Shown: in pieces, positions 1 through 60,431 of the stretch
Layout: each line of letters opens with the position of its first letter
Position numbering within the stretch: the first letter of the stretch is position 1
Assembly (NCBI GenBank): GCA_016206155.1
Contig: JACQSC010000010.1
Location: 8,073 to 72,072 of the forward strand
DNA: 64,000 nucleotides
Direction: 5' to 3'
Origin: Candidatus Uhrbacteria bacterium
Lineage (GTDB): Bacteria; Patescibacteriota; Patescibacteriia; JACQRZ01
The notes under the pieces: generated by a model
What the model saw: the letters and a program-made list of their open reading frames with translations, nothing else
Told to the model about the DNA's origin: nothing
The model's database searches: none
Translations under genes and position numbers: made by a program

Positions 1-1105
1 CTTCGCGGATACCGATACATTCAAGACGTCCCGGCATTCCCGTCCACGATGACAACGCGCGATCCATGGCGGGAACATCTGCGCCAACCATCATGCCAGT
101 GGTTAATGCCGCAAGGGCATTGTCTTGATTGTGCAGCCCCTGAAGCGATAGATTCGACATGTCATACACCGCAAGGCGCGATACGCCATCGTGCCACACA
201 GCAGTCTGCGTATGTGATGCCCGACTCCGTTCGATAGAACATCCGCGTTCGATCGTGGCGCCAGTGCGAGAATACCAATATAGCCGCTCAGAAGCAATGC
301 CTGCTGATAACAATCGATGGATAGGGTCATCGATGTTCAGCACGACCCCACCTTTATCGTCAGTAGGCTGAAATCGAAAAATATTTTTCTTTGCCTCAAT
401 ATACGCATCCATCGATGCGTAACGGTTAAGATGGTCTGGTTTGATGGTCGTCATCACTGCATACTGCGGACTTACTGCGTGAGCGCCAAGTACCTCGAGC
501 TGCCAACTGGAGAGTTCAAGAACAACGGGATCGGTACACCCATTTTGACGATCCTCAAGAACACGGTCAAGAATTGAAAAAAATGAAATGGCTCCTGACG
601 AGGTAGCGATACCACCGACAACCACCCGCGGAAATGTCTGCTTTAGCAGCACTCCAAGGAGCGACACCGTCGTCGTTTTTCCACGGGTACCCGTTACACC
701 GATCGTATTCACTCTCTGTGCAAGCGCAAAAAAAATGCTTGCATCATTATGGATCGGCACGGCGTGCGCGCGTGCCAGAGAAAGAAATGGGGAATCCCGC
801 GGAACGCCTGCGTTTTGAATAATGCAATCGGCGCGCAAGATGTCTTCATCCCGATGGCGCCCGAGAATATATTCAATCGATGCGCAGTGTTTCCCGGGAT
901 GAGCGAGACGATATTCGTTGCATAGTGTTGTCAAACGGACGAGAGATGGCTCGAGCTCTGCTCGACTCTTTATATCGGATACGATAACTTCCGCGCCCTG
1001 TCGGAAAAACCAGTAAGCGGCCGCCACTCCTCCGCCATGGAGGCCAAGTCCAAGGATAAGAATTTTTTTGCCGTAAAAATCGTGAGGAGAAGTGATAGGG
1101 TTCAT
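1..1105 (-). CDS. murD: UDP-N-acetylmuramoylalanine--D-glutamate ligase MurD (3' part runs off the window start)
   Basis: Minus-strand translation from the ATG at 1105 gives MNPITSPHDFYGKKILILGLGLHGGG (Rossmann GxGxxG), GVTGTRGKTTT and LQGLHNQDNALAA. Not in the ORF track because no stop codon lies inside the window. Confidence 0.85.
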   Translation of the reverse strand, partial: MNPITSPHDFYGKKILILGLGLHGGGVAAAYWFFRQGAEVIVSDIKSRAELEPSLVRLTTLCNEYRLAHPGKHCASIEYILGRHRDEDILRADCIIQNAGVPRDSPFLSLARAHAVPIHNDASIFFALAQRVNTIGVTGTRGKTTTVSLLGVLLKQTFPRVVVGGIATSSGAISFFSILDRVLEDRQNGCTDPVVLELSSWQLEVLGAHAVSPQYAVMTTIKPDHLNRYASMDAYIEAKKNIFRFQPTDDKGGVVLNIDDPIHRLLSAGIASERLYWYSRTGATIERGCSIERSRASHTQTAVWHDGVSRLAVYDMSNLSLQGLHNQDNALAALTTGMMVGADVPAMDRALSSWTGMPGRLECIGIRE

Positions 1106-1144
1106 AGTTTATAGTTTGTAGTTTGTAGTTCATGGTTCGTAGTT
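1106..1144 (-). repeat. Tandem heptamer leader (AACTACA/AACTACG units) directly 5' of the murD start codon
   Basis: Top strand tagtttgtagtttgtagttcatggttcgtagtt. Read on the minus strand this is (AACTACn)x5 ending at the ATG, with no SD. Confidence 0.7.
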
Positions 1145-1173
1145 ATTTTTTCTACAAACTCATTAACTACGAA

Positions 1174-2226
1174 CTAATACAGCCCCCTCTCTACCAGCAC
1201 AATACTGACTCCCACGACCGCCGTCACACCCGCGATAACCCAAAATCGCATGACAATCGTTGGCTCTTGCCAGCCCCGTGCCTCCAAGTGGTGATGAAAT
1301 GGCGTAGAAAGAAAGAGCTTGCGCCCAAAAAGTTTTCGTGAGCACTTTTGGATAATAACCGACCCCGTTTCCAGCAGGTACAGAAAACAGATCACGGGCA
1401 ATAACAGCGCGCTGTTGGTCAGCATTGCAACAATGCCAAGCGTTACCCCCAGCGACATGGATCCCGTATCACCCATAAAAAACTTTGCCGGGTAAATGTT
1501 GAACCAAAGAAAAGCAAGAAGCGCCCCGATAATCACTGCGCAGAATGTTGCGAGATCATACTTCCCTTGAGTGAAGGCAATCGCGCCAAACGATGCGAAT
1601 GCCGCAAGCAGCGTTCCGCCGGCAAGGCCGTCGAGACCATCGGCTTCATTGACGGAAAAAGCCGTTGCCACAATAACAATAATAAAAAAAGGAATATACC
1701 AAATACCGATCGTATAGTCTCCCAAGAAAGGCACGTGAAGCGTATCCCAGCCGAGTTTAAAATAAAACCACCACGCGCCAACGCACGCAATCAATGTATA
1801 CAAAAGGAAGCGATGGCGCATGCGCAACCCACTAAATGAACCGAGCCCCTTAATATTCAAAAGATCGTCAACAACCCCAACCAGCGCCGATGCGACGAGC
1901 GCGCCGAGGGGCAAAAGCACCTGAGACCGGCTGAGAAAATTCAATTGTTGAATGAGCGTATCTTCAAAGAGAAGTGCAAGATAGGCAAAAAACAATGCAA
2001 ATAATAGCGGCGTAATCCAAATGAGCACCCCTCCCATAGTTGGCGTTCCCTCTTTGCCTTTATGCAGCGCGGCATAAATCGGGGCAGCGGCATGATCGCG
2101 AATCCTTTTCACCAACTTATAACGAACAAGCAATCGATGTACAACGGGTGTCCACATCCACGCCCAGAGAAATGAAAGGATCGAAAGAAAGGTGATCTTG
2201 AAGATAATTATGTTGAGTGTCACCAC
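1174..2226 (-). CDS. mraY: Phospho-N-acetylmuramoyl-pentapeptide transferase MraY
   Basis: PTMGG, VDDL, NEADGLDGLA and HHH motifs; polytopic membrane protein; GTG start. Confidence 0.9.
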   Translation of the reverse strand: MVTLNIIIFKITFLSILSFLWAWMWTPVVHRLLVRYKLVKRIRDHAAAPIYAALHKGKEGTPTMGGVLIWITPLLFALFFAYLALLFEDTLIQQLNFLSRSQVLLPLGALVASALVGVVDDLLNIKGLGSFSGLRMRHRFLLYTLIACVGAWWFYFKLGWDTLHVPFLGDYTIGIWYIPFFIIVIVATAFSVNEADGLDGLAGGTLLAAFASFGAIAFTQGKYDLATFCAVIIGALLAFLWFNIYPAKFFMGDTGSMSLGVTLGIVAMLTNSALLLPVICFLYLLETGSVIIQKCSRKLFGRKLFLSTPFHHHLEARGWQEPTIVMRFWVIAGVTAVVGVSIVLVERGLY

Positions 2227-10282: not shown

Positions 10283-10356
10283 GTTGCGGGGGCGGGATTT
10301 GAACCCGCGATCTCCTGGTTATGAGCCAGGCGAGATGCCGGACTTCTCCACCCCGC
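10283..10356 (-). tRNA. Initiator tRNA-fMet (anticodon CAT)
   Basis: Acceptor CGCGGGG/CCCCGCA with the C1xA72 mismatch typical of bacterial initiators. Anticodon loop CTCATAA. T-arm GCGGG-TTCAAAT-CCCGC. Confidence 0.8.
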
Positions 10357-10384
10357 GCAAGGAGGATACCACGGTTCCTTTATT

Positions 10385-10413
10385 TTGACAAATCACGATT
10401 TTTATGCTATAAT
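10385..10413 (+). promoter_or_regulatory. Perfect consensus TTGACA-17-TATAAT on the top strand (target unclear)
   Basis: ttgaca aatcacgatttttatgc tataat, with a second tataat 3 nt later. It points into the antisense of the antiporter gene. On the minus strand TTGTCA-17-TATCCT could drive tRNA-fMet. Confidence 0.35.
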
Positions 10414-10466
10414 TGCTATAATTAGCTCTGTTTTCGGGGATCTTCCGCGGAGATAACCTGTAACCC

Positions 10467-17224: not shown

Positions 17225-17262
17225 ACACTTGAATCAGGAATTATGAATCAGGAATCATGGGG
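17225..17262 (-). repeat. Heptamer leader (ATTCCTG/ATTCATA units) 5' of the M16 peptidase start
   Basis: Top gaatcaggaattatgaatcaggaatcatgg. On the minus strand (ATTCCTG)(ATTCATA)(ATTCCTG)(ATTCAAG)TGT-ATG. Confidence 0.65.
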
Positions 17263-17308
17263 GGTTATTCCAATAATTCATGACTCCTTATTCCTTATTC
17301 GCCGTTGT

Positions 17309-19784: not shown

Positions 19785-19832
19785 GGATATGCAGGGGTTA
19801 GGGTATAGGGTATAGGGTATAGGATAGAGCAC
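19785..19832 (-). repeat. Telomere-like heptamer array; coding-strand (CCCTATA)x3-CCCTAACCCC directly 5' of the pilT ATG
   Basis: Top gggttagggtatagggtatagggtatagga. Four or more GGG tracts on the template strand. Confidence 0.7.
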
Positions 19833-29898: not shown

Positions 29899-29937
29899 AA
29901 CAATTTCAACTTTCAACTTTCAGATTAAAGTATAGCA
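29899..29937 (-). promoter_or_regulatory. pilM promoter (TGcTATACT) and heptamer leader (GAAAGTT)x2-GAAATTG
   Basis: Top caatttcaactttcaactttcagattaaagtatagca. No SD. Confidence 0.6.
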
Positions 29938-32427: not shown

Positions 32428-32504
32428 ATAGTATATAATACTGTTAAAGATTTCACTATACCCTAACCACTATAACCTATACCCTGTCTCGTATGCCCCG
32501 CACT

Positions 32505-32638
32505 TAACTCCGATTGCTGCTATTAATCATCCGTCCTATGATATACACTACACACCGTTTATTCATCATCACCTCGATTTCCTCTGCTGTCGTGTCGCAG
32601 CATGAGGATGATCGGAGTTAAGTGCGGGGTATGGAATC
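32505..32638 (+). promoter_or_regulatory. 19-bp perfect inverted repeat (ccccgcacttaactccgat / atcggagttaagtgcgggg) spanning the clp 5' region
   Basis: The arms are 96 nt apart and the right arm ends 1 nt before the ATG of MESFLKRC. An upstream CCCTAACC/CCTATACCCT motif lies at 32470-32495. Confidence 0.5.
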
Positions 32639-34943: not shown

Positions 34944-35559
34944 CGAGAGCTTCCTGGCGCAAGTTGCTCCTGCCGTTGACACCGACGAAGAACAACAAGC
35001 GCAGGAGCGTGGTGGAGGTGAACAGCACGGCGCTCTTGTTCGCGCAATCTTCGCGCAACGGCTCGGGCAAAACAAGCGCGAGGAACAAAAACTGACCAAG
35101 GAGCTCGAACACTGGAAAGAGGAACTCGCGGCACAAGAACGAAAAAAAGGAACGTGTATGATACTCCTCATTGTTGCTATGGGCGATGATGTTATAGACG
35201 TTCTCGGCGCTCTTGTCAGCTTTGGCCTCTTAAGCTCAGTCACCTTTCCAATACCAGGCATTATCCGCATGATGGTTGCAATCCATGAACGGGAGCCGCG
35301 TCCAGATCGTCTTTTACGTACAGTCGCCGCAATGGCAATTGAAGCGATACCATTGCTCAATCTTCTTCCAACGACAACGATCAATCTGATCATTGACCTT
35401 ATCGAGGCGTCCTGGGATGGGGATCAAGCGAAAAATAAAGTTGAAGATCTTGAGAAAAAAATAAAGACATTGAAGCAAACAACTGGTGCGCAGACCAGAA
35501 ACGCCATGCAAATCATGCGCGGGATGTCCCAATCTGCCATGTCCCGCCGCGCGGCATAG
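34927..35559 (+). CDS. Hypothetical membrane/coiled-coil protein
   Basis: Start reset to MPKGVDESF; the upstream part of the track ORF overlaps clp out of frame. One TM plus coiled coil. Confidence 0.4.
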   Translation: MPKGVDESFLAQVAPAVDTDEEQQAQERGGGEQHGALVRAIFAQRLGQNKREEQKLTKELEHWKEELAAQERKKGTCMILLIVAMGDDVIDVLGALVSFGLLSSVTFPIPGIIRMMVAIHEREPRPDRLLRTVAAMAIEAIPLLNLLPTTTINLIIDLIEASWDGDQAKNKVEDLEKKIKTLKQTTGAQTRNAMQIMRGMSQSAMSRRAA

Positions 35560-35612
35560 AAATGGTGTCTGGCTCAGTTTTGTGAAGCAAATCTGTGCCT
35601 GACACCATTTCA
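35560..35612. repeat. Palindromic element B copy (GAAATGGTGTCtgg...CCtGACACCATTTC); likely terminator
   Basis: gaaatggtgtc / gacaccatttc 11-bp arms with a 27-nt loop immediately after a stop codon. Confidence 0.6.
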
Positions 35613-35636
35613 TTCACTAACCAAGTGTGCTATACT
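35608..35636 (+). promoter_or_regulatory. Extended -10 promoter (TGcTATACT) for the TolB-like gene
   Basis: tttcat-17-tgctatact, followed by the (CCCCTAA)x5 leader. Confidence 0.5.
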
Positions 35637-35648: not shown

Positions 35649-35690
35649 CCTAACCCCTAACCCCTAACCCCTAACCCCTAACCCCTATTC
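35649..35690 (+). repeat. (CCCCTAA)x5 telomere-like heptamer array in the 5' leader
   Basis: taacccctaacccctaacccctaacccctaacccctattccc ends 8 nt before the ATG at 35699. Confidence 0.8.
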
Positions 35691-39701: not shown

Positions 39702-39790
39702 CAGAAATGGTGCAGAAATGGCAGAAATGGTGTCACAGAAATGGGAAATGGTGGTAATGGGAAATGGTGGGAAATGGTGTCAGGTCTGGT
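39702..39790. repeat. Tandem cluster of element-B half-sites (CAGAAATGG / GGAAATGGTG repeats)
   Basis: cagaaatggtgcagaaatggcagaaatggtgtcacagaaatgggaaatggtggtaatgggaaatggtgggaaatggtgtcagg. Confidence 0.7.
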
Positions 39791-39809
39791 TTTCTATAGC
39801 CCACGAAGT

Positions 39810-39935
39810 AATAATGGGGTCAGAATATAATGGGGTCAGGAGCCATTAATTTAATGGCTCCTGACCCCATTATTCTGACCCCATTATTCCCCATTATTCC
39901 CATTATTACTCCTGACCCCATTATTCATTCACTTG
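39810..39935. repeat. Large near-perfect palindrome (~40-bp arms) plus CTGACCCCATTATT-type repeats between convergent genes
   Basis: aataatggggtcagaatataatggggtcaggagccattaa | ttaatggctcctgaccccattattctgaccccattatt, then cccattatt repeats. Likely a bidirectional terminator. Confidence 0.7.
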
Positions 39936-41918: not shown

Positions 41919-43343
41919 ATGGCTCTTTCTGTCTATATCTGCTCGAATTGCGATGCGCAAAGCCCGAAATGGGCAGGGCGGTGCTTGGAGTGCGGATCGT
42001 GGGGAACGCTTGCGCAAGGAATCGCAGATGAAAAAACCAGCGGAAAAAAATCAACCGCAGGCATAGCGCCAGCAGACGCAATTCCCTTCTCGCAGATTTC
42101 AAACGAACATGTCCCGCGCCGCTCCACCGGCATTGCCGAAGTTGATCAAGTTTTGGGTGGCGGTATCGTTCCGGGAAGTTTGATTTTACTTGGCGGAGAG
42201 CCGGGGATTGGGAAGAGTACGATTTTAGGACAGCTTGCGTGCTCAATTTCACAACAAAAAAACTCCGTCATCTATTGCTCTGGGGAGGAGTCGGCCCAGC
42301 AAGTCAAAATGCGGTTTGACAGGATCAAAGCACTGGATCCCGGCCTGCGCCGGGATGACAAAGGGAGCGGGGCTGACACCCTCCTCTTCATCGGTGAAAC
42401 CAACTGCGAAAAAATCTGCGGTGCGCTTCGTCATCATAAACCGACGCTCGCAATCGTTGACTCCATACAAACTATCGCCTCTTCCGATATTCCTTCAGAA
42501 GCGGGAAGTATCGCGCAAGTACGCGCATGCACAGTCAAACTCCTTGAAGTCGCAAAGCAGGAAAACATCCCAATCATTATTACCGGCCATGTCACAAAAG
42601 AAGGCGGTGTTGCCGGTCCCAAAACTCTTGAACATCTTGTTGACACAGTCCTCTATCTTGAGGGGGATGCAAGCCAGTATTTTCGCCTATTGAAAACAGT
42701 AAAAAATCGCTTTGGCTCGACAAATGAGATTGGCGTCTTTGAAATGACTGGCGCAGGGTTAGTTGAAGTAAAAAATCCGTCAGAGCTTTTTCTCTCGTCA
42801 GAAAACGAACACGCGGCAGGCACTGCAACGACTGCGGTTGTAGAAGGATCGCGCGCGTTTCTCGTTCCCATTCAGGCGCTGACGAGCAAGACATATTTCG
42901 GCTACCCCCAACGAAAAAGCATCGGCATAGACGCCAATCGCCTCGGACTTCTTGTCGCGGTGCTTTCAAAACGTCTTGGGGTTAATCTTGGCGATCAGGA
43001 TATTCATGTCAACGTTGTCGGAGGCCTCAGAATATCCGAGCCTGCCGCAGACCTCGCGGTATGCGCAAGTATTCTCTCCTCGTACAAAGGGAAAATGGTG
43101 TCAGGTACCATTTTTGAAGAAATGGAACCAGACACCATTTTACCAGACACCATTTTGCCGACTATTTTCTTTGGCGAGGTTGGCCTCACAGGAGAAGTGC
43201 GTCCCGTAAGTCACACTGAGAAGCGACTCAAGGAAGCGGAGAAGCTCGGCTTCAAGACTGCGTATATTCCGAAGCAGTCAAAAAAAATCTCAACAAGCAT
43301 TCAGCTTGTTGAGATTAAAAACGTCCGCGAGTTGGAAATTTAA
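41919..43343 (+). CDS. radA: DNA repair protein RadA/Sms (carries two in-frame palindromic-element insertions)
   Basis: CxxC zinc ribbon, GEPGIGKST Walker A, KNRFG motif, Lon-like C-terminal domain. Extra segments ALDPGLRRDDKGSG and KMVSGTIFEEMEPDTILPDTILP. Confidence 0.9.
   Translation: MALSVYICSNCDAQSPKWAGRCLECGSWGTLAQGIADEKTSGKKSTAGIAPADAIPFSQISNEHVPRRSTGIAEVDQVLGGGIVPGSLILLGGEPGIGKSTILGQLACSISQQKNSVIYCSGEESAQQVKMRFDRIKALDPGLRRDDKGSGADTLLFIGETNCEKICGALRHHKPTLAIVDSIQTIASSDIPSEAGSIAQVRACTVKLLEVAKQENIPIIITGHVTKEGGVAGPKTLEHLVDTVLYLEGDASQYFRLLKTVKNRFGSTNEIGVFEMTGAGLVEVKNPSELFLSSENEHAAGTATTAVVEGSRAFLVPIQALTSKTYFGYPQRKSIGIDANRLGLLVAVLSKRLGVNLGDQDIHVNVVGGLRISEPAADLAVCASILSSYKGKMVSGTIFEEMEPDTILPDTILPTIFFGEVGLTGEVRPVSHTEKRLKEAEKLGFKTAYIPKQSKKISTSIQLVEIKNVRELEI
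42335..42366. repeat. Element A mini-hairpin inside radA (GGATCCCGGCC-tgc-GCCGGGATGACAAAG), in frame, encoding DPGLRRDDK
   Basis: 11-bp inverted repeat with a 3-nt loop inside the coding sequence. The same peptide and sequence recur in the 911-aa gene at about 58771-58812. Confidence 0.75.
43092..43160. repeat. Element B inside radA, in frame (aaatggtgtcaggtaccattt...ccagacaccatttt x2)
   Basis: Encodes KMVSGTIFEEMEPDTILPDTILP; contains the GAAATGGTGTC/GACACCATTT palindrome. Confidence 0.75.
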
Positions 43344-43363: not shown

Positions 43364-45505
43364 TTACTTCCTCAACAGCCCGCCCCACTCAACAAGCGTA
43401 AAGCCATTGCGAGGGATGCTGCTGAGAGCCTGAGGCCGCATCACAACGGGCTTATCAAGCCCATCGAAGTCCAAGAATATGCGAATCACTGTGTCTGGCT
43501 TTGGCGTTACGGAAAGCGGCGCAAGCGCGTTCATCTCGCGCGTGCCAAGCCAACTCAAGCGCGTGTACGGTGTCGTTGGCATCTTTGACAGCCAGAATTC
43601 CAAGAAATCGGCAGCTTCTTTTTCATTAAGCCCAAGCTGTGCAAGGTGTTCTCGCAACGTGCCTTCAAGCTGATCTTTTGCAACGACGAATCCTCGTGTG
43701 ATGGTCGGATACTGCTTTCCGGTCCCCTCCCAGAACAGCGATGAGTATGTCCCGCTCGCATGCTGCAACGTTCCATCGGGATACGCGCGAACCTGCCAGC
43801 CATTTCCGTACGCCGGCTCAGAGATGCGGATCTCCGCATCAACCGCCACCGATACATCTGTTGGCGTTGTCGGATAGAGGTAGATGACGGGCTTGCCGCA
43901 TTCGACGGCAGGACCGTACGTTGTGTTATTGTATACGACATAGCGATTGAGCGCGTCTTTCACCATAATCACGGGCCGCTTTGCCAGAAACTGTTCATAG
44001 CTTAACTTCTTGCTTTCCCCGTCTGCATAATATGCGCCGCCCGACATCTCGTACAGCGCCCGCTCAACGGAATTGGCTCCTGCCTTAAACGCGTATACGG
44101 TTTTGTTCCCTGCTCCGGTGCCAATCTTAGTGATGTTAGAAATCGAAGCATCACCAAGCACTGGCGTGAACGATCCGCCACCACACCCACCGGTTGCAAG
44201 TTCCTCATACCCGTCGGTATTTTTTATGCCATTATTCCACTTAATGCTGGGAACGCCATCATCACCCCCGAGCTCATTCTTGGTATAATCGTAAGAATAT
44301 TCAATGCCATTGGGCGCCTTTAAGACAAACGTCTGCACGCGCAATGGTTCGATTGATCCTGGCCCATCAACGGAATACAGCGTGCCGTTTGCCGTACTTG
44401 CAACCTGCGTACGCGTTGTCTTAAATTCAGGTTCTGCGTAGCGAGAATCGCCGCGGTTCAATGTAACTCCTTTATACGCAATCGTATCAGGCGCTTTAAT
44501 GGATGGATAGAAGGTCGTGGTGTTAATCCTCACGTTCCGGTCAACGACACCGCCAAACACCTTTCCGGTATCCTTATCATACACCTCGGAGTTGCGGGCA
44601 ATAAATTCATAGTTCCCGCCTGCATCCAAAAAGTACGCGTGGTAATCCTCGAACGAAGGTCCGTCCGGAGGAATCGCTGCAAGCAAAACATCGCGTCCGT
44701 TATCGCTGCCTGTTTTGTAATAGGTGACCTCCTCCCCGTTTGTTTGCAGGAAGAGGTGTGGCGGATTAGATAGTTTTTGTGGCGTGGAAAGCCATGTTAC
44801 TCCTGACTCCGGCGTTTGTGGAGCAGAAAATATTTGACCAGATGTTGAAAAATAGGGCGCATATGCTTGCGGGATGTTGCTGATATCTCGATTGGTAATG
44901 CCAAGCCCGAGTTCGCGCATGATGTTAAACGCATCCGACGGTCGGCCGAGAAAATAGCGCCTGCTATCTACTGGATTGACATACCATGCCTCACCGTTTC
45001 GTTGAGTCTGAAGCAAAATTTTCCCATGAAGGCGCCGAGTAAGGCTCGTATCTATTGGTAAAGCTCCCGATCCAAGCGGATCAAGATTTTCTTGAAGCTC
45101 AACGTCATCGCGATATCCGTCATAATCCGTGTCAGCGGCCTGTGGATTCATGCCAAGAGTTTCCTCCAGATTGTTTGGAACACCATCCATGTCAGAATCA
45201 TTAAAACGACCGCCACCCATGGTATCGCGTGCGACGCCAACAGGAATTTTGCGCAAATCCGAATTTGAAATGCCAAGACCCAAGCTGTTCATGAGCTCAA
45301 ACGCGTCAGATGGCCGACCCATATATATGCGGCTTCCGGTGTCGGGCCTGATATACCACGCTTCGCCAAGACTCTCAACCTGAAGAACGATTCTTCCCTT
45401 GAGACGATCGGTCAATGTCGCGGCACTTGCCGACAACACAAACGCGCCAAGAACAACCGCTCCGAGGGTTATCAGTCCCGTTCCTAACAAAAGACGATTT
45501 TTCAT
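43364..45505 (-). CDS. Secreted protein with 2 copies of a novel ~55-aa repeat, TSP3-like Asp-rich Ca-binding repeats and a large C-terminal domain of unknown function
   Basis: Signal peptide. Repeats LKGRIVLQVESLGEAWYIRPDTGSRIYMGRPSDAFELMNSLGLGISNSDLRKIP and LHGKILLQTQRNGEAWYVNPVDSRRYFLGRPSDAFNIMRELGLGITNRDISNIP. DSDMDGVPN...DTDYDGYRDD. Confidence 0.7.
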   Translation of the reverse strand: MKNRLLLGTGLITLGAVVLGAFVLSASAATLTDRLKGRIVLQVESLGEAWYIRPDTGSRIYMGRPSDAFELMNSLGLGISNSDLRKIPVGVARDTMGGGRFNDSDMDGVPNNLEETLGMNPQAADTDYDGYRDDVELQENLDPLGSGALPIDTSLTRRLHGKILLQTQRNGEAWYVNPVDSRRYFLGRPSDAFNIMRELGLGITNRDISNIPQAYAPYFSTSGQIFSAPQTPESGVTWLSTPQKLSNPPHLFLQTNGEEVTYYKTGSDNGRDVLLAAIPPDGPSFEDYHAYFLDAGGNYEFIARNSEVYDKDTGKVFGGVVDRNVRINTTTFYPSIKAPDTIAYKGVTLNRGDSRYAEPEFKTTRTQVASTANGTLYSVDGPGSIEPLRVQTFVLKAPNGIEYSYDYTKNELGGDDGVPSIKWNNGIKNTDGYEELATGGCGGGSFTPVLGDASISNITKIGTGAGNKTVYAFKAGANSVERALYEMSGGAYYADGESKKLSYEQFLAKRPVIMVKDALNRYVVYNNTTYGPAVECGKPVIYLYPTTPTDVSVAVDAEIRISEPAYGNGWQVRAYPDGTLQHASGTYSSLFWEGTGKQYPTITRGFVVAKDQLEGTLREHLAQLGLNEKEAADFLEFWLSKMPTTPYTRLSWLGTREMNALAPLSVTPKPDTVIRIFLDFDGLDKPVVMRPQALSSIPRNGFTLVEWGGLLRK

Positions 45506-45565
45506 AATTCTTAATTCTTAATTCTTAATTCTTAATTCTTAATTCTTAATTCTATTAGTATAGCA
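45506..45565 (-). promoter_or_regulatory. Promoter (TGcTATACT) and (AGAATTA)x7 heptamer leader ending at the ATG
   Basis: Top ttcttaattcttaattcttaattcttaattcttaattcttaattctattagtatagca. No SD. Confidence 0.7.
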
Positions 45566-49297: not shown

Positions 49298-51421
49298 CTA
49301 CTCGATATGCACGGTATCCTGGAATGTGGCGATTCGGTTTTTAAGTTCCGGGTGATCATTGAGCTTGGAATGATATGCCGCTGCATATTCTCGCGCTTTT
49401 ATAATCAACTCGATATCGGTAAGCGTCGCGATTTTCAAGCGCGGCATTCCTGATTGGCGCAGTCCCAAGATATCACCTTCTCCGCGCAATGCTAAATCTT
49501 TCTCTGCCAGCGCAAAGCCGTCATGTGACGATACAACGGCTTTGAGACGGCTGATTTCTTCTTTGTCCTCGTCGGTTGGTGCAAGAAAGCAGTACGACTG
49601 ATGGTCTGCCCGCCCGACTCGCCCGCGCAATTGATGCAAGCTCGCAAGCCCGAACCGCTCCGCGCCCTCGATGAAGACGATCGTCGCATTTGGCACATCG
49701 ATGCCAACCTCGACAACTGACGTTGTAACTAATATATCAATCTCATGGTCTCGAAATGCGGCCATCACCCGTTCTTTCTCCGCGGTTTTTATTCGGCCAT
49801 GGAGCATTTCGACTCTTTCGTGTCGAAACGGTCCATCGATTAATTTTTTATACTCTTCCTTTACCGACCGCACACCCAATATATCAGATTGATCAATGAT
49901 CGGACAGACAATAAATGCCTGGCGCCCTCGCCTCACGTGTTTTCGGATAAAATCGTATGTCCACGCGCGATAGGACTGCGGCACAATTTTTGTGATAATT
50001 TTTTTTCGCCCCTTTGGCAATGCGCGAATCGTGGAAATATCAAGGTCACCATACACCGTGAGCGCCAAGCTCCTCGGAATTGGCGTTGCCGTCATTGACA
50101 GGACGTGCGCAGTGATTGGCGCACTGTTTTTTTCTCTCAAGGCTTTCCGTTGATTGACGCCAAAGCGATGCTGCTCGTCTACAATCACAAACGCGAGGTT
50201 CTTGAATGAAATTTTTTCTTGAATCAACGCATGTGTCCCGATAACGATATCAACACCTCCATTTGCTATCGTATCTCGTAACTCGTAATCCTTGATTCTT
50301 AATTCTTGATTCTTAATTCTTAATTCGTGATGCTGTGCTGTGAAAAGCGCAATGCGAACATCAAAATCCGCAAACACCTTTTTTAATGTAGTGAAATGCT
50401 GCCGTGCAAGCACCTCCGTCGGCGCCATGAACGCGCACTGGTATCCTGCGTGCACAACGTTAAGCATTGCGAGGATAGCAACGATTGTCTTACCGGATCC
50501 GACATCACCCTGAAGAAGGCGATTCATTGGCGTCGCTTTCTGGATATCACAGAGAATCTCCCATGCAACGGTCTTCTGCTCTTTTGTCAACGTAAACGGA
50601 AGCGCCGCAATGAGCCGCTTCGTTATTTTTTGATCAAACGGTATGGCACATGAAGTCTGGGCGGCTAGCGATTCCTTGAGATTCTTGCAATAAAGTTGAA
50701 GTAAAAAAAGCTCCTCAAACTTAAAGCGCTGTTCGGCGATACAATATTCCTCCTGTTTTTCCGGAAAATGAATTGATAAAAGAGCGGTCGAAAGATCGGG
50801 ATATCGCTCGTGCGCGCGGATATCATCTGGAAGCCACTCTTTGACAAAGGGAAGACATCGATCAAGCGCCGTACGCATGAGGAGGCGAAATTGCTTTTGC
50901 GCAACGTTTGCGGGAAACGAATAGACGGGCACGAGCCGCGCCGTGTGAAGCGATGGAAATACGGTGTCAGGTATCCTGACCCCGTTTTCTGCGCCTGACC
51001 CCGTTTTCTCATATACGGGACTCACCATCTGGAGATCATAATAATGATCGCTCGTTTTTCCCGAAAGACTCAACCAGTCCCCGACTTGCAGGTTTTTTGT
51101 AAGAAAAGGTTGATTGAACCATACGATCTTGATGCTCCCGCTTGCGTCCGAAACCAATGCTTCGGTGACGATCATCCGCGAACGTCGAGAGCGGCGATTG
51201 GCGATCATATCGATCCGCCCCCGAATTGTTGCTGTTATCTGGGTGCGCAGGTCTGCGATTGGAAGCACGAGGGAAAAATCGTCAAATCGTCGCGGAAAAT
51301 AAAAAATGAGATCCTCGCAGGTCTCAATACCAAGTGGCTTTAGTTTTTTTTCCAATGCCTTTCCTGTTCGGCCTAAGCTCGCGAGAGGTTGCGCAAGAGG
51401 ATTCATAAGTTGATTCACCAT
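49298..51421 (-). CDS. recG: ATP-dependent DNA helicase RecG (carries in-frame repeat insertions)
   Basis: Wedge domain, GDVGSGKT Walker A, DEQHRFG and the TRG-like C-terminus. Insertions HELRIKNQELRIKDYELRD and KTGSGAENGVRIPDTV. Confidence 0.9.
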   Translation of the reverse strand: MVNQLMNPLAQPLASLGRTGKALEKKLKPLGIETCEDLIFYFPRRFDDFSLVLPIADLRTQITATIRGRIDMIANRRSRRSRMIVTEALVSDASGSIKIVWFNQPFLTKNLQVGDWLSLSGKTSDHYYDLQMVSPVYEKTGSGAENGVRIPDTVFPSLHTARLVPVYSFPANVAQKQFRLLMRTALDRCLPFVKEWLPDDIRAHERYPDLSTALLSIHFPEKQEEYCIAEQRFKFEELFLLQLYCKNLKESLAAQTSCAIPFDQKITKRLIAALPFTLTKEQKTVAWEILCDIQKATPMNRLLQGDVGSGKTIVAILAMLNVVHAGYQCAFMAPTEVLARQHFTTLKKVFADFDVRIALFTAQHHELRIKNQELRIKDYELRDTIANGGVDIVIGTHALIQEKISFKNLAFVIVDEQHRFGVNQRKALREKNSAPITAHVLSMTATPIPRSLALTVYGDLDISTIRALPKGRKKIITKIVPQSYRAWTYDFIRKHVRRGRQAFIVCPIIDQSDILGVRSVKEEYKKLIDGPFRHERVEMLHGRIKTAEKERVMAAFRDHEIDILVTTSVVEVGIDVPNATIVFIEGAERFGLASLHQLRGRVGRADHQSYCFLAPTDEDKEEISRLKAVVSSHDGFALAEKDLALRGEGDILGLRQSGMPRLKIATLTDIELIIKAREYAAAYHSKLNDHPELKNRIATFQDTVHIE
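50281..50330. repeat. Heptamer array (cgtaatc/cttgatt/cttaatt units) inside recG, in frame, encoding ELRIKNQELRIKDYELRD
   Basis: Top actcgtaatccttgattcttaattcttgattcttaattcttaattcgtga. Confidence 0.75.
50961..51012. repeat. Element C (CCTGACCCCGTTTTCT x2 with a GGTGTCAGG palindrome arm) inside recG, in frame
   Basis: ggtgtcaggtatcctgaccccgttttctgcgcctgaccccgttttctc encodes KTGSGAENGVRIPDTV. Confidence 0.7.
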
Positions 51422-51603: not shown

Positions 51604-52086
51604 CTAGAGGCGGAGTGTACGCATCAGCCAGTCCCACATCGGTTCATACTGATGGTCGGCATCTTCGTCCAAAAATTCCATCAGGAATAGTTTAATAGAT
51701 TCGGGCTCAATGTCAATTAGGGGCAGGGGAAGAATATTCCGAAGCCCGCGGGCTTCATGCACATAGAGTACGCGCGCGCCGTCCCCACGCTCAATAATCG
51801 AGAATGATGCAAGGTCGTTAAATGAATACTGCTTGTTGCCCACGCGAATGCCTGTTGGGGCTATCTCACAGGTAACATCCGCCGGACTCTGGAATTGCCG
51901 CGCAAAAATAATCAATACCACCAGCACGACGATGACGGTAAAGAGAAAATTGTTCGTCGCGAAACTATACAGCACCGCCAACGCAACAACGACGCCGGCA
52001 ATGACATACCACCACACGCCGCGCGCATGCTGGTCGAATTCTTTGAATGTCCATGTGAACCCTGTTTGCTCTGGCATAAACGTCAT
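51604..52086 (-). CDS. Hypothetical membrane protein
   Basis: Two N-terminal TMs followed by a soluble domain; no motif recognised. Confidence 0.5.
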   Translation of the reverse strand: MTFMPEQTGFTWTFKEFDQHARGVWWYVIAGVVVALAVLYSFATNNFLFTVIVVLVVLIIFARQFQSPADVTCEIAPTGIRVGNKQYSFNDLASFSIIERGDGARVLYVHEARGLRNILPLPLIDIEPESIKLFLMEFLDEDADHQYEPMWDWLMRTLRL

Positions 52087-52174
52087 ACTACGGAGTATAG
52101 CAAATTATGCAATTGGTGTAAATAATTGACGGGTGACCTTTATTCCGATAGACTATTTTCATCATACATTAACT

Positions 52175-53975: not shown

Positions 53976-54012
53976 GGATTAGGGCTTAGGGTTTAGGGTT
54001 TAGGGTTTAGGA
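53976..54012 (-). repeat. Telomere-like heptamer array; coding strand (CCTAAAC)x3-CCCTAAGCCCTAATCC directly 5' of the ATG
   Basis: Top gattagggcttagggtttagggtttagggtttagg (a TTTAGGG-type repeat on the template strand). Confidence 0.75.
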
Positions 54013-55896: not shown

Positions 55897-55903
55897 GATG
55901 TCA

Positions 55904-56061
55904 TTCGTAACTCGTAATCCGTAATCCGTAATTATTTTTGATTTTCGATTGAACTAATAAGCCCGTTAATAAGCTGCATAACCTCTTTTGATTATTCTCC
56001 AAGTTCTTTGCACTGTTCCTTGTACAAGTTACGAGTTACGGATTACGGATTACGAGTTACG
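55904..56061. repeat. Inverted pair of heptamer arrays (CGTAACT/CGTAATC units, ~28 bp each) flanking a 93-bp spacer
   Basis: Left cgtaactcgtaatccgtaatccgtaatt (55904-55935). Right ttacgagttacggattacggattacgagttacg (56029-56061). 27 of 28 positions are complementary. The left array is the VirB4 leader; the right array encodes the C-terminus and stop of the upstream gene. Confidence 0.75.
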
Positions 56062-56770: not shown

Positions 56771-56797
56771 ATTACGAGTTACGAGTTACGAGTTACG
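56771..56797. repeat. Heptamer array (TTACGAG)x3 that overlaps the stop of the 56779 gene and forms the leader of the 56043 gene
   Basis: attacgagttacgagttacgagttacg. On the minus strand it reads ...GAC GTA ACT CGT AAC TCG TAA (DVTRNS-stop). Confidence 0.75.
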
Positions 56798-57225: not shown

Positions 57226-57264
57226 GAGAATTAAGAATGACGAATTAAGAATTACGAATGATTG
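57226..57264. repeat. Heptamer array (AGAATTA/CGAATTA-type) that forms the leader of the 56779 gene and encodes the IRNS-stop tail of the 57245 gene
   Basis: gagaattaagaatgacgaattaagaattacgaatgattg. On the minus strand it reads ATT CGT AAT TCT TAA. Confidence 0.7.
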
Positions 57265-57640
57265 ATTTTGTGCCCCTGATCAGACCATTGATAATTTTAC
57301 TTACCACTATGGTAAGATCAGCGATTTTCTTAAAGGTGCTTCTCTCGACATAGCCTATATCCCTTGCTATCAACAATTGATTCTGAATTTCCGTAAGCGA
57401 CCCAAGGGCCATTGAGTAAAACTGCGCCTTCTCTTTATAGGAATTTCTGCTGAAGCCTTCAGCAATATTTGACGTTATGGAAACAGCTGCCCTACGCAAT
57501 TGATTTGTTAAACCGAACTGTTCATCTTTTGGAAACGTTGTTGTAATTTTGTATATCTCTAAAACGAGAGCGTGCCCTTCTTGCCAGGCCTTGAGATCTG
57601 TAAATGATTGTATCTTGCTTCTGCTTAATTCTTGATTCAT
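57245..57640 (-). CDS. Four-helix-bundle protein (23S rRNA IVS protein / Avd-like family)
   Basis: LKAWQEGHALVLEIYKITTTFPKDEQFGLTNQLRRAAVSITSNIAEG is characteristic of the TIGR02436-type family. Confidence 0.7.
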   Translation of the reverse strand: MNQELSRSKIQSFTDLKAWQEGHALVLEIYKITTTFPKDEQFGLTNQLRRAAVSITSNIAEGFSRNSYKEKAQFYSMALGSLTEIQNQLLIARDIGYVERSTFKKIADLTIVVSKIINGLIRGTKSIIRNS

Positions 57641-57672
57641 AATTCTTAATTCTTCATTGCAGACAGTATACC
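57641..57672 (-). promoter_or_regulatory. Promoter (gGTATACT) and AGAATTA heptamer leader of the four-helix-bundle gene
   Basis: Minus strand TATACTGTCTGCAATGAAGAATTAAGAATT-ATG. Confidence 0.6.
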
Positions 57673-57695
57673 ATTATTCTGAAGGCATCACAACG

Positions 57696-60431
57696 CTAGT
57701 GCCGTAACTTCTCGTTCACATCAAGGAGCGCGTCGAATTCTTCTGGTGTAAGATACTCTTTCCCTGCGCTTTTCCTCTCTTCAATAAGTTTCGTCATGTC
57801 CTGTCCAAAATTCTGTTGGCCAATCTCAAGATAGAGCTGGTAGGCAGGGCTCTCCTTCCATGCGTTTATCGCCTCGGCTTTTTTGCTCAGGGATTCTTTT
57901 CCCAGCGCGTTAATTTTTTCCAAAATTTTCTGTGTCGCCGCATCAGGATCCTGTGAAATGCGGCGGAGGTCCTTGATGGTCAATGCGCGCAGTTCATCAA
58001 TGGGTCCGACAAGGCGCACCGGCGCTTTCACGTCCGGTATTGGTTTTTTGTCCGCGCCAACGGCAGTTTTTGCCACCGCTCCTCCGCCAGATTCTGAAGC
58101 TTTTGCCGTAACCACAATGGGAATATCCTTTGCATCTTCAAGATGTTCGGGCACCTTCACCGGCTCGGAAATGGTGTCTGGCTCGGAAATGGTGTCTGGT
58201 TTCATTTCTCCGGAAATGATACCTGACACCATTTCCGGAGCTAACTCAGGAGTTTCCTCAGGAGTTTTTTCTGGAACAACAGGCGTCTCTTCTTTCTTTT
58301 TTCCGTTCGCCTTTTTCTCGACTTTCTCAACAATAGTCGGCACCCCTCCCACTTCCTTAATAACCATCTTCGGAGGAGTGGGGTCTGGCTCTGACCCCGT
58401 TCCCACATACTCCCCACTCCTTCCTTCAGCAACAGCTTGTGCCGCTCGTGCCGCCTCCTGCAAGAGCTTCTCAGCATCCTCTGAGGACAAACCAGTGCCG
58501 CCTTCAGCGGTTGGCGCGCACAATCGATCTTTTGTGTCTATCGCATTGCGGATGTTGCGCAGCAGCGTCACGATAATTTTCTTCACCCGCTCTCGATTGT
58601 CGTCAGTAAGGATTGCACCCGCCTTGTTAGTCACCGCATCGGCAACCGCCATAAAATCAATTCCCGTTCCCACTGCCTGATTCTTAATTCGTAATTCTTG
58701 ATTCTGCATTGTCGGCGCCTCAACAATAGTAATCGTCGGTGTCGGTACCGCTGGGGTCTGGCTTAATCCTGCTTTGTCATCCCGAACCTCCTCTTTGTCA
58801 TCCCGGCGAAGGCCGGGATCCATTTGTCCCTGACCCCGTTCTGCGCTTTCAACGACCGTCTCCTCTTCCTGTGAAAGAGCGTCAGACATTATTTTCATAA
58901 CTCTCTCGCGTGTGTTCTCCTCTTCTTCTGAGAGTTGAAACGGTATGACCATCCAATCTATACGTGGCAATTCCAATAAACTGTTTGGAAACCCTTTGAG
59001 AACGAGATAAGTATCCAAGAGTTTGCGCAGCGCCTCGCGATCGCGCTCAACGAGTTTTGGCGCGGCGGCGCTTTGTGTCAGATATTTCGCAAGCGTGAGA
59101 GACGATCCCTCGCCTTTGGAAAATCCCAAAAAGTCCTTGATCCAGTTGCCAACCGTCGGATCTGCCCCGTTCACCTGCTCTGTTCCAATCTTCTGCTCGT
59201 TTTTATACATCGCATTAAGGAGCTCCTGCGCATACCCCTCGATCTCGTTGAGAAGTTGCAAAATCGTCGTGTTCAATGCGGGAAGAATAGAGTCATTCCC
59301 ATACAGATGGAATACAAGCGTGGTTTGGAAAAGATGCGCCATGTCATGCCTCTCTTTTTCAACATCCTTTATGGTATAGCTCTCGTATATCTTTTGGGCA
59401 ACATCAATGAATATCTTCTGCGCCGCTATATTCAATCGGCTTCCTTGAACGTCCTTGTCGGGGTTGCCGCCAAGCGATCGATACAATTCCCGCTGATCGC
59501 CAAAATGATAGGGGAACAGAAGAACGACATTCAGAAAAATCTCACGAGCGCAAAGCTGATCTCTTTCATCCTTAAATGCACAAATGCTGTCGATTTCAGC
59601 CGCAAGATTCTCAACAGGAAGTTCTTTGGTCCACACATTGAGAATGGTCTCATTAATACGGCCAACCTGTTCATCAGAGAGCTGAAACGCTTCCTTTAAC
59701 TGGCTAAGAAAGATGTCGTAGTCGGCTGTGAGATTTACTTCTTGGATATAGTCAGGGATTGAGAAAAGTTTTTTGGCGTCAGGAGAAAACGCAATCTTTG
59801 CGGCAAACTTTTTCACCGCTTCCTGGCCATGATCTCTGAGGTCAAGCGCAATCGCGTGACAAGCATCTTTCATCGCGTCAATCCCTTCGCGTGCGCGGCG
59901 TAACATGACATGGGGTGTGGCTATGTCTGTAACGTGCTCACGAACTGCGGCAAAAATATCTTCATTATGAATGCTTGTTGCGGGAATAGAGAGAAGAATA
60001 TCAGCCGCAAAGTCCGGATTCTTGCACGCATCGGCAATGAGCGCAGTTGTTGCCGCGCGCCGTAATGGATCAGAAAGCGCCCACGTTCCGTCATCGGCGA
60101 GCGCGAGAAAGCGCCCGGTCAAACCATGCGCGCGGCCGAGCATGCGAACCGCACACACAAAGCCATTCGTATAGTTGTTTGGTTCACGCTCTGCGAATCG
60201 AATTCCTGCTTCGAGCTGGGGCAAAAGCGCTTCCATCTGCACCTTTAGTGCATCACGAACATCCGGCTTTATAAACACAAGCCTGTCAAACGCAAGTAGC
60301 GCCTTTGCACTATCGTTTTGCCCGACCAAATATAAGGCGCCAACCAACACCCAACTCACATCCTTGACGGTAATGTTGTCGAGGTTGAATATCCCCTGTT
60401 CTATAAATTGTGCGAGCTGTTCTGAAGTCAT
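57696..60431 (-). CDS. Large hypothetical protein (911 aa) in the T4SS-like cluster; carries elements A and B, an ELRIKNQ heptamer insertion and a Pro/Glu/Lys-rich low-complexity region
   Basis: No catalytic motif recognised. In-frame segments QMDPGLRRDDKEEVRDDKAGL, MVSGIISGEMKPDTISEPDTISEP and MQNQELRIKNQ. Confidence 0.6.
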   Translation of the reverse strand: MTSEQLAQFIEQGIFNLDNITVKDVSWVLVGALYLVGQNDSAKALLAFDRLVFIKPDVRDALKVQMEALLPQLEAGIRFAEREPNNYTNGFVCAVRMLGRAHGLTGRFLALADDGTWALSDPLRRAATTALIADACKNPDFAADILLSIPATSIHNEDIFAAVREHVTDIATPHVMLRRAREGIDAMKDACHAIALDLRDHGQEAVKKFAAKIAFSPDAKKLFSIPDYIQEVNLTADYDIFLSQLKEAFQLSDEQVGRINETILNVWTKELPVENLAAEIDSICAFKDERDQLCAREIFLNVVLLFPYHFGDQRELYRSLGGNPDKDVQGSRLNIAAQKIFIDVAQKIYESYTIKDVEKERHDMAHLFQTTLVFHLYGNDSILPALNTTILQLLNEIEGYAQELLNAMYKNEQKIGTEQVNGADPTVGNWIKDFLGFSKGEGSSLTLAKYLTQSAAAPKLVERDREALRKLLDTYLVLKGFPNSLLELPRIDWMVIPFQLSEEEENTRERVMKIMSDALSQEEETVVESAERGQGQMDPGLRRDDKEEVRDDKAGLSQTPAVPTPTITIVEAPTMQNQELRIKNQAVGTGIDFMAVADAVTNKAGAILTDDNRERVKKIIVTLLRNIRNAIDTKDRLCAPTAEGGTGLSSEDAEKLLQEAARAAQAVAEGRSGEYVGTGSEPDPTPPKMVIKEVGGVPTIVEKVEKKANGKKKEETPVVPEKTPEETPELAPEMVSGIISGEMKPDTISEPDTISEPVKVPEHLEDAKDIPIVVTAKASESGGGAVAKTAVGADKKPIPDVKAPVRLVGPIDELRALTIKDLRRISQDPDAATQKILEKINALGKESLSKKAEAINAWKESPAYQLYLEIGQQNFGQDMTKLIEERKSAGKEYLTPEEFDALLDVNEKLRH
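58163..58238. repeat. Element B inside the 911-aa gene (ggctcggaaatggtgtctgg x2 ... cctgacaccatttccgg), in frame
   Basis: Encodes MVSGIISGEMKPDTISEPDTISEP. Followed by the tandem ctcaggagttt x2. Confidence 0.7.
58771..58835. repeat. Element A derivative inside the 911-aa gene (ctttgtcatcccg x2 ... gccgggatcc, plus ctgaccccgtt), in frame
   Basis: tttgtcatcccgaacctcctctttgtcatcccggcgaaggccgggatccatttgtccctgaccccgtt. Confidence 0.7.

Follow-up and report, generated by a model that had tools for sequence, protein, structure and literature searches.

What stands before a bacterial gene when seven copies of a heptamer run up to its start codon and no Shine-Dalgarno (SD) sequence is to be seen? The question is raised by a 64,000-nt stretch of DNA from a Candidatus (Ca.) Uhrbacteria bacterium (Patescibacteriota; contig JACQSC010000010.1, positions 8,073 to 72,072), referred to throughout as the window, in which the array (AGAATTA)x7 leads into the gene for a 713-aa protein and arrays of other heptamers lead into further genes. 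With a probability that we put at roughly 60%, the arrays are lineage-specific repeats which recently colonised short leaders and gene junctions, several of them as arms of hairpin cassettes which carry a gene for S23p, the 23S rRNA intervening-sequence protein, and (AGAATTA)x7 stands alone as an array of the commonest cassette-arm unit. It is improbable that the arrays constitute a new signal for ribosome recruitment, and this organism appears to start translation without SD pairing in any case.

The array upstream of the 713-aa gene

The 713-aa gene (43364..45505, minus strand) has no Pfam match; its homologues are Patescibacteria proteins, part of them annotated as thrombospondin type 3 repeat-containing. 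Read on the minus strand from 45565 to 45503, its upstream region consists of the extended -10 promoter element TGCTATACT (45557..45565), the trinucleotide aat, six copies of AGAATTA, a last AGAATT and the ATG with which the open reading frame (ORF) begins. Tandem Repeats Finder (TRF) reports the array (45506..45553) at 45501–45553 with a period of 7, 7.6 copies and 97% matches. The promoter element is recognised by the excess of its motif in the window and by its conservation in a related genome, both described below. On its other side the TAG stop codon of a PGA_cap/Memo fusion gene directly abuts it, so that the 62-nt spacer before the 713-aa gene consists solely of promoter and array. Transcription is predicted, from the position of the promoter, to start at ~45550, within the first AGAATTA unit, and the array would then be essentially the entire 5' untranslated region (UTR).

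The composition of this leader is 57% A, 29% U, 14% G and 0% C, and UAA is present in all three frames. It is unstructured (minimum free energy, MFE, -3.7 kcal/mol, z 0.1) and its best duplex with the anti-SD sequence has -0.4 kcal/mol. Its unit is a rotation of AAGAATT, the commonest 5'-arm unit of the metagenome S23p loci described below, and the junction at the start of the gene, GAATT-ATG-AA, is common to 36 of 80 S23p gene starts.

Excess and position of period-7 arrays

Counts for the window cover this one 64-kb stretch and 47 genes, the starts of which were curated by hand. It holds ten exact period-7 arrays, where 20 dinucleotide shuffles gave an expectation of 0.05. Periods 2–6, 9, 11–13 and 15 gave no exact array; a single one was counted at each of periods 8 and 10, and three at period 14, which is itself a multiple of 7. 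A period-7 stretch (28 nt with at least 80% self-match at that period, within -60..+3) was found upstream of 8 of the 47 genes and in none of 282 random coding-interior segments, while the same upstream test at the other periods from 4 to 11 gave 0/47. The observation of the sequence-only reading, that leaders made of heptamers reach the start codon with no SD sequence, is thereby borne out. One of its examples has to be withdrawn: the supposed tandem heptamer before murA (TATTCGTAG x2) is in fact two 9-mers 16 nt apart. Under a looser cut 11 of the 47 genes have an array leader, namely those for MurD, the M16 peptidase, the T2SSE ATPase, PilM, the 404-aa, 713-aa and 204-aa proteins, VirB4, the TraC-like protein, PrgI and S23p; about three quarters of the genes in the window are without an array.

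Twelve of the 14 arrays in the window lie outside coding sequence and ten are start-proximal, the distance from array end to ATG being -6 to +16 nt. Most are intercistronic and lack a promoter of their own, and arrays also occur within coding sequence (RecG, 50269–50331; a 911-aa ORF, 58680–58705) and across gene ends. The units are AGAATTA (5 sites), TTACGRR (4 sites), CCCTAAM, TATACCC, AACTACA and GAAAGTT, and one unit may stand in both orientations relative to the mRNA (AGAATTA/TAATTCT, TTACGAG/CTCGTAA). The orientation of leader arrays with respect to G and C (7 versus 4) is not significant; the three strongly skewed units (CCCTAAC, CCCTAAA and TATACCC) are all C-rich in the mRNA sense. 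At gathering thresholds Rfam recognised five tRNAs only in the window, with no RNA family over the arrays or hairpins and no rRNA.

Arrays in related genomes

Are the arrays needed by the genes behind them? A syntenic Ca. Uhrbacteria metagenome-assembled genome (L004; 78% nucleotide identity across the region of the 713-aa gene) retains the promoter of this gene as TGTGCTATAAT, followed by a leader of 30 nt which is A-rich and repeat-free. The more distant orthologues in L002 and L003 are also without an array. For the operon of the type IV secretion system (T4SS) we compared three relatives with VirB4 83–94% identical (L169, L172 and L174). Their junctions are 1–17 nt long or the genes overlap, whereas the window has arrays or ~150–430 nt of inserted DNA; compact array-free junctions occur in the relatives at all four T4SS-operon sites, with 1–9 nt between the PrgI and TraC-like genes and 5–8 nt at the virB4 leader. 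A scan of ~55 kb of these three relatives found neither a period-7 array nor an S23p gene. Since orthologues keep their promoter or compact junction without any array, the arrays are recent insertions or expansions and not a required initiation device.

The junction of virB4 and the 204-aa gene gives a series. It holds no unit in L169 and L172, a single ACCCCTAA in L174, which includes the VirB4 stop codon, (ACCCCTA)x5 in L004 and (CCCTAAA)x4.7 in the window (53979..54011, minus strand; TRF and sequence), where the array is the leader of the 204-aa gene. A telomere or telomerase-like origin of the CCCTAAA and CCCTAAC arrays was considered and rejected: the array grows from, or shrinks to, one ACCCCTAA in a 94%-identical relative. 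In recG the in-frame array (50269..50331, minus strand; encoding ELRIKNQELRIKDYELRD) makes a variable loop 7 residues longer in the window than in L004, that is, 21 nt or three units, and T-to-C variants eliminate TAA from it. Differences between species are thus of whole units.

The sequence-only reading had offered slipped-strand contingency arrays as one explanation. Copy number does shift in whole units between species. In the population, by contrast, the CCCTAAA array, the only one for which copy-number polymorphism was examined, is identical in five independent metagenome assemblies (Logan contigs 99.9–100% identical to the window). The sole other contig over the main array (Logan contig L001, 99.8% identical to the window) ends inside it, after three AGAATTA units (L001 1–20), and heptamer arrays are probably under-represented in metagenome assemblies, short-read assemblies breaking within them. 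An assembly artefact was rejected as the source of the arrays, since the CCCTAAA array recurs in five assemblies made independently and one assembly reproduces the beginning of the AGAATTA array. Sequencing runs which contain this organism are SRR12113385, SRR12113390, SRR12113422, SRR12113429, SRR12113432 and SRR12113433. We regard the arrays as evolutionarily young and dynamic, not visibly hypervariable in the population, and dispensable for the genes behind them; many of the genes with arrays are housekeeping genes (murD, M16 peptidase, recG).

Across Patescibacteria, 1.26 Mb of recG-anchored loci contained 126 period-7 arrays, the next most frequent period being 9 with 44. Of the 126, 49 are coding, 30 start-proximal, 17 after gene ends only and 30 in other contexts. 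A minority of lineages holds most of them, the number per 10 kb varying between 0 and 9 from locus to locus.

The recG variable loop itself carries arrays in several of these genomes (L004 11055–11092, L064 1905–1931, L030 10090–10119 and L043 11360–11385, besides 50269–50331 of the window). Their units differ (AGAATTA, CAAAATT, AATACCA), are in frame and stand just 5' of the motif D(I/V)IIGT(H/Q)AL. The loop has 61 to 100 residues between conserved anchors.

S23p hairpin cassettes in the window

The array that precedes prgI is one arm of a larger element. An S23p gene (57245..57640, minus strand; PF05635, 23S rRNA intervening-sequence protein, a four-helix bundle; Pfam E 2e-38) lies between two inverted arrays. 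The 5' arm, of AGAATTA type (57624..57658), holds the S23p ATG and follows the promoter TGGTATACT at 57665–57673; the 3' arm, of TAATTCT/TAATTCG units (57227..57261), is also the leader of prgI (ATG 57219). The arms are 89% complementary over 28 nt (57626–57653 and 57227–57254), with a duplex energy of -29 kcal/mol, and they encode the first codons (MNQEL) and the last codons plus stop (IIRNS*) of S23p. This intact cassette sits between the 911-aa gene and prgI of the T4SS operon, with the TGGTATACT promoter 5' and the prgI start 3' of it. L169 and L172 have no cassette before prgI, and in L169 the TGGTATACT promoter stands 7 nt before ATGGATCAA.

The insertion splits the TATACT-N7-ATG arrangement of prgI in the window and leaves a 3-codon ORF (ATGAAGAATTAA) behind the promoter at 57665–57673.

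A second cassette, in a state of decay, separates the TraC-like gene from virB4 (minus strand). Its 5' arm (GTAACTC/GTAATCC units, 56023..56061) gives the TraC-like gene its last codons and stop, and its 3' arm (TTACGGA/TTACGAG units, 55897..55932) is what had been taken for the virB4 leader array. Between them is what is left of an S23p 3' end, with an in-frame stop (55933..56022): in blastx LYKEQCKELGE*SKEVMQLINGLISS matches S23p C-termini with 54% identity over 26 aa (E 0.002 in a small S23p database). The arms contain a perfect 26-bp inverted repeat (56036–56061 and 55906–55931) which mirrors the order of the variant units, and the hairpin has -55.8 kcal/mol (z -6.8).

The arm of the decayed cassette adds an in-frame upstream ATG to virB4 (ATGTTTATGCCA, 55890–55896). 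The virB4 product at NCBI (P0121) has 622 aa against 624 for the ORF, a difference of 2 residues consistent with initiation at the second ATG, the one that corresponds to the start in the relatives.

Two more array sites are hairpins which enclose no gene. Directly upstream of the M16 peptidase ATG (17231..17300, minus strand; MFE -25.7 kcal/mol, z -3.9), GAATAAG/GAATTAT units at 17271–17300 pair with TGATTCC/TAATTCC units at 17231–17260, and on the plus strand this hairpin has the S23p-type junction GAATTATGAATCAGGAATCA. Upstream of murD (1100..1175, minus strand; arms ~1152–1175 and 1117–1142; MFE -22 kcal/mol, z -4.2) an inverted-array hairpin is joined by (AACTACA)-type units running into the ATG. 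At least four array sites of the window thus fit hairpin cassettes, one intact and one decayed (both with S23p sequence) and two empty, in addition to the solo arrays.

Like an intervening sequence (IVS) of 23S rRNA, the window element has a PF05635 ORF and terminal inverted repeats; it is not inserted in 23S rRNA helix 25/45. As for traits of mobile hairpins, filled and empty sites are seen, the arms differ among the copies in the window, and gtctgcaATG / cgcagtgATG is a weak candidate for a target duplication.

S23p cassettes in other genomes

Metagenome loci with 58–74% identical S23p (76 or 80 loci, depending on the test) display the same design. At 76 loci, 49 upstream and 54 downstream flanks scored 0.85 or more for period 7, and none did so for periods 5, 6, 8 or 9. 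Because heptamer arrays can pair in several registers, which makes their alignment ambiguous, arms were judged by duplex energies with shuffled and cross-locus controls. The mean flank duplex of the 76 loci is -43.7 kcal/mol, versus -27.7 kcal/mol for shuffles. Arm pairing is stronger within a locus (-26.8 kcal/mol) than between loci (-21.4 kcal/mol; p 2e-7), the non-complementary control giving -14.4 kcal/mol. A co-directional host gene stands beside S23p upstream at 74 and downstream at 68 of 80 loci, mostly within ~50 nt, and host start codons fall within or just past the 3' arm, as for folA-like and carB-like N-termini (identified by eye). Elsewhere on the contigs of this set, away from the cassettes, period-7 arrays have a density of 3.3 per 10 kb and often form inverted pairs at close distance. 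Two further Patescibacteria loci have inverted arms of other units around S23p homologues.

Beyond the metagenome set the cross-phylum sample of S23p is small. Plasmid homologues belong mostly to Nostocales, with some from Riemerella and Azospirillum, and complementary flanking arrays were found at ~10 of 14 inspected plasmid loci (Nostocales, Riemerella, Geminocystis and Azospirillum). Within 50 kb of one plasmid of Nostoc punctiforme, eight of the nine heptamer arrays form four inverted pairs, one of which encloses an S23p gene. Several plasmid S23p loci are nested between cas genes.

Examples of array-flanked S23p genes (annotated "four helix bundle protein") within CRISPR-cas operons of cyanobacterial plasmids are L177 (Pseudanabaena plasmid; cas6-cas4), L182 (Picosynechococcus; cas10-cmr3) and L184 (Anabaena sp. 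90; upstream of cas4).

Promoters and translation initiation

The motif TGNTATAMT occurs at 19 sites in the window versus 1.9 expected, and directly precedes the arrays at 45506, 35649, 29904 and 57624. A generic sigma-70/terminator scan of 44–64 kb, which missed extended -10 promoters, gave 19 promoters versus 20.5 expected. Of the proposed arrangement, an extended -10 element followed by an array, the motif is real and the order holds for these four arrays; it does not extend to most arrays, which are intercistronic and promoterless.

Protein homologues and syntenic contigs put the window among the Patescibacteria, near Ca. Uhrbacteria. It has no rRNA from which the anti-SD sequence could be read, and the usual one was assumed. 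None of the 11 array leaders forms an anti-SD duplex of -6 kcal/mol or below. For genes that have no array, anti-SD pairing is at the level of random coding windows (mean duplex -3.0 versus -3.1 kcal/mol; at or below -6 kcal/mol, 5/36 versus 12%). The lack of an SD sequence thus appears to be general here and not peculiar to the array genes, and the proposal that the SD had been replaced specifically in genes with arrays is therefore not sustained.

What does distinguish the array leaders is weak structure in the region -40..+20 (MFE -2.8 versus -8.8 kcal/mol for other leaders; Mann-Whitney p 8e-5) and a G content of 11% versus 20%. The arrangement TATACT-N7-ATG, at gene 51604–52086 and at prgI of L169, suggests, as a pattern of sequence, that there are leaderless mRNAs in the clade.

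In these two cases TG(C/G)TATACT stands exactly 7 nt 5' of the ATG (window 52087–52102; L169 8790–8822).

Relation to described repeats

Heptanucleotide repeats make up the short tandemly repeated repetitive (STRR) sequences of the cyanobacterium Calothrix. As in STRR and long simple sequence repeats (LSSR) generally, the window arrays are head-to-tail 7-nt units beyond chance, mostly non-coding and of patchy, lineage-specific abundance. The sequence-only reading was not aware of heptamer leaders as a described feature; start-proximal heptamers are in fact already on record (PMC4679880, PMC4692102, PMC4990558), and the over-representation of heptamers in bacteria is traced, as cited in PMC4679880 and PMC4692102, to Mrazek 2007.

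A close likeness is found in Beggiatoaceae, where TAACTGA repeats end 1 nt before start codons which lack a ribosome-binding site (RBS), and where binding by S1 or other proteins has been speculated upon (MacGregor 2015, PMC4679880). TAACTGA direct repeats are found in marine Beggiatoaceae, some Cyanobacteria and some Bacteroidetes (PMC4679880). Like the window arrays they have 2–7 tandem copies, are mostly intergenic, stand near a start codon with no RBS and contain stops in the forward orientation; like them also they occur occasionally in ORFs, in a stop-free orientation, and strains differ in 7-nt steps. Unlike them, TAACTGA is a single unit with a strong forward bias, whereas the window, in a member of the Patescibacteria, has at least six unit families, none of them TAACTGA, in both orientations and with many inverted pairs. 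The text of MacGregor 2015 makes no link to S23p (PMC4679880).

In Xanthomonas and Nostoc, heptamers lie no more than 50 bp before ORFs, their C-rich strand being that of the mRNA, and inverted pairs are occasionally seen (Rehm 2015, PMC4692102). These are G-rich repeats of GGGAATC and GGGGA(C/T)T (PMC4692102). The LSSR of these genera share with the window the over-represented heptamer period, the mostly intergenic position and the C-rich mRNA strand (here CCCTAAC, CCCTAAA and TATACCC). The window differs in that most units are A/T-rich and would not form G-quadruplexes, in its small compact genome with 5–50-nt spacers, and in that four arrays fill the whole predicted 5' UTR from extended -10 to ATG.

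In the Coxiella IVS an S23p ORF, with two or three GACAGAT heptamers before its ATG according to strain, is enclosed by a 28-bp terminal stem which RNase III cleaves (Warrier 2016, PMC4990558). Thus the 23S rRNA IVS of Coxiella burnetii and Leptospira resemble the window cassettes in having a PF05635 ORF, subject to decay, in the loop of a stem of ~26–28 bp, and heptamers of variable copy number ahead of the S23p ATG. The cassettes differ from them in lying outside 23S helix 25/45, between protein genes of a T4SS operon (in cyanobacterial plasmids, cas genes), and in that both arms are heptamer arrays which double as stop region and leader of host genes.

Repeats within a 5' UTR may also be phase-variable. 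AGAT in Moraxella uspA2 is such a case (as cited in PMC4679880), and for heptamer repeats of Haemophilus influenzae RNase III-dependent control involving 5'-UTR structure is reported (PMC12721329). As in the window, tandem repeats stand between promoter and start and their copy number can tune expression; unlike these, the window has no population polymorphism (in the one array tested), mostly housekeeping genes and no known host–pathogen context. SD-independent initiation on unstructured or leaderless mRNAs is known from comparative analyses (e.g. PMC5397173). The window shares with such mRNAs the lack of SD enrichment, the weakly structured starts and some cases of TATACT-N7-ATG; that literature describes composition and structure and is not known to treat tandem repeats.

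A full-text literature search of incomplete coverage returned no description of heptamer leaders in Patescibacteria and none of a general link between S23p and heptamer hairpins outside rRNA. As leaders, the arrays add another example to a known class of repeats; what looks new is the cassette inside protein operons and its recurrence across phyla. Heptamers have been known since 2007 as the most over-represented long simple repeats of bacteria, and those close to start codons have been a puzzle in Beggiatoaceae, Xanthomonas and Nostoc. The window extends heptamer leaders to the candidate phyla radiation and connects several arrays with a definite element, the S23p hairpin cassette. Should the link with S23p be general, it would offer a testable origin for the repeats and a first functional context for PF05635. 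For annotation, starts, gene ends and small genes near arrays are easily miscalled, and short-read assemblies break within the arrays.

Origin of the arrays

Based upon the above we favour the following scheme. The cassette would consist of two inverted arrays of 7-nt units which bracket a small S23p gene and are inserted between protein genes, a design which we take to be the same as in S23p-bearing 23S rRNA intervening sequences. On insertion the 5' arm would provide a stop for the upstream gene and the 3' arm a leader, and sometimes the AUG, for the downstream gene; with stop and leader supplied, operon expression would be left intact. Once paired, the arms would keep the downstream start masked; either translation of the upstream gene or cleavage by RNase III, which is established for rRNA intervening sequences (PMC4990558), would open the stem and free it. 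(AGAATTA)x7 would be a repeat of arm type, orphaned from a cassette or seeded on its own, which lies between a conserved extended -10 element and the ATG, probably grown to seven perfect copies by replication slippage and presumably transcribed from ~45550 as the whole 5' UTR. Such a solo array would give an unstructured, G-poor 5' UTR with stops in all frames and an accessible AUG, which may be tolerated and possibly be mildly favourable. The 7-nt period would then be set by the process that generates the repeats and not by the ribosome.

Several observations weigh against this scheme. An inverted partner for (AGAATTA)x7 was sought within the window and none was found. Beside it, blastx for an S23p remnant returned KTIFHNS as the best match, which at E 0.87 is not evidence. 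What ties the array to cassettes is identity of unit and of junction. The C-rich arrays of the window have no inverted partners either, and some arrays look locally seeded, such as ACCCCTAA at the VirB4 stop codon in L174. The other three inverted pairs on the N. punctiforme plasmid have short loops in which no S23p remnant was detected, and S23p may be a passenger of heptamer hairpins and not their source. From the share of start-proximal arrays (10/14) one cannot well tell whether that position is preferred or insertions are simply tolerated there, the SD statistics rest on 47 genes with starts that we curated ourselves, and the transcription start, SD-independence and any RNase III step are things that we infer.

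A much broader claim, which we entertain only tentatively and consider doubtful as a whole, is that S23p cassettes are widespread outside rRNA as mobile or copy-maintained elements, that together with empty hairpins and orphaned arms they are a major source of the heptamer excess, and that S23p acts on or binds the arrays. Its range of hosts would take in Patescibacteria, Nostocales and other Cyanobacteria, Bacteroidota and some Proteobacteria, STRR and start-proximal heptamers included.

Somewhat less probable again is that the arrays are neutral by-products of a replication slippage biased to heptamers and unlinked to S23p, which would merely sit in permissive spacers or ride in hairpins as a passenger. 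Slippage has been proposed for heptamers as the commonest long simple repeats in many bacteria (Mrazek 2007, via PMC4679880), and it would account for the proto-unit at the VirB4 stop codon of L174, for the independent rise of different units in one recG loop, for the patchy, lineage-specific array content across Patescibacteria and for the S23p-free hairpins of N. punctiforme. However, slippage makes direct repeats only, and not a perfect 26-bp inverted pair which mirrors the order of variant units. Neither does it explain why heptamer arrays stand in ~65–70% of S23p flanks when the same contigs have a background of only ~3.3 per 10 kb, nor why arm units and the arm–ATG junction are common to distant loci.

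We think it unlikely that the arrays are a dedicated SD-independent signal which binds S1 or another RNA-binding regulator, possibly S23p itself, so that genes with a shared unit form a post-transcriptional regulon. This was argued by MacGregor 2015 for TAACTGA in Beggiatoaceae (PMC4679880), and one might have expected as much from arrays of which 10 in 14 end within ~16 nt of a start codon, with SD-less, unstructured and G-poor leaders, unit families that recur at several genes, and strongly skewed units whose C-rich strand is that of the mRNA, like those of Xanthomonas and Nostoc (PMC4692102). The orthologues, however, lack arrays; the units are many and unrelated, and the same unit may stand in both orientations; arrays lie in coding sequence (49/126 at the Patescibacteria loci, with 17 after gene ends only); and several "leaders" form one half of a stable hairpin, a structure that would block ribosomes and not recruit them. 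The least credible view, that the arrays are contingency loci in which slipped-strand mispairing often alters copy number and so switches or tunes the downstream gene, can appeal to the seven perfect copies of the main array, the whole-unit differences between related species, the strain-variable heptamers of the Coxiella IVS (PMC4990558), the thrombospondin type 3 repeat annotation in the 713-aa family and the break of a short-read assembly within the main array, but has against it the identity of the CCCTAAA array in five independent samples, the many housekeeping genes, the position of arrays 3' of the -10 element or between cistrons and not in a promoter spacer, the in-frame state of the coding ones, the lack of any evident on/off mechanism and the small effect that leader length should have where there is no SD.

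Solo arrays and other repeats

Apart from those before the 713-aa and 204-aa genes, the solo arrays are as follows. (CCTAACC)x5.6 (35649..35687, plus strand) is the unstructured leader of the 404-aa gene and follows TGCTATACT at 35628–35636. (TATACCC)x4.3 (19795..19823, minus strand) lies upstream of the T2SSE-family ATPase gene. At the PrgI/TraC-like junction TRF detects (GTAACTC)x3.7 (56772..56797, minus strand), which encodes the C-terminus of PrgI (..VTRNS) and its stop. The pilM leader is an array of (GAAAGTT)x2.7 (29904..29922, minus strand) which follows TGCTATACT at 29929–29937. The in-frame AGAATYA-type array of the 911-aa ORF (58680..58705, minus strand) encodes QNQELRIKNQ and is 92% complementary to 57227–57252.

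A dispersed palindromic motif, GGAAATGGTGTC(T/A)GG, has 8 matches in the window versus 0.3 expected, usually as inverted pairs which form hairpins (35559–35611, 39724–39782, 43091–43102 and 58167–58236, the last cluster being inside the 911-aa ORF; also L004 19760–19812). A 53-nt stretch with this motif is 98% identical in L004, and it looks like a repetitive extragenic palindromic (REP)-like or terminator-like element. The site at 39724–39782 also contains GAAATGGTG repeats with periods of 10–21 nt, and the convergent spacer at 39805–39930 holds nested perfect inverted repeats of ATAATGGGGTCAG / CTGACCCCATTAT, including a 23-nt perfect palindrome at 39827–39873; neither set is a heptamer array.

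Upstream of and overlapping the GTG start of a ClpB/ClpC-like gene is a 22-nt inverted repeat with 95% complementarity (32493–32514 and 32611–32632, 96 nt apart), adjoined by a degenerate GGGTATA-type array at ~32455–32490. There are two tRNA-Met genes (9650–9723 and 10283–10357), and beside one of them TGCTATAAT occurs twice in tandem at 10405–10422, giving two adjacent extended -10 elements on the plus strand.

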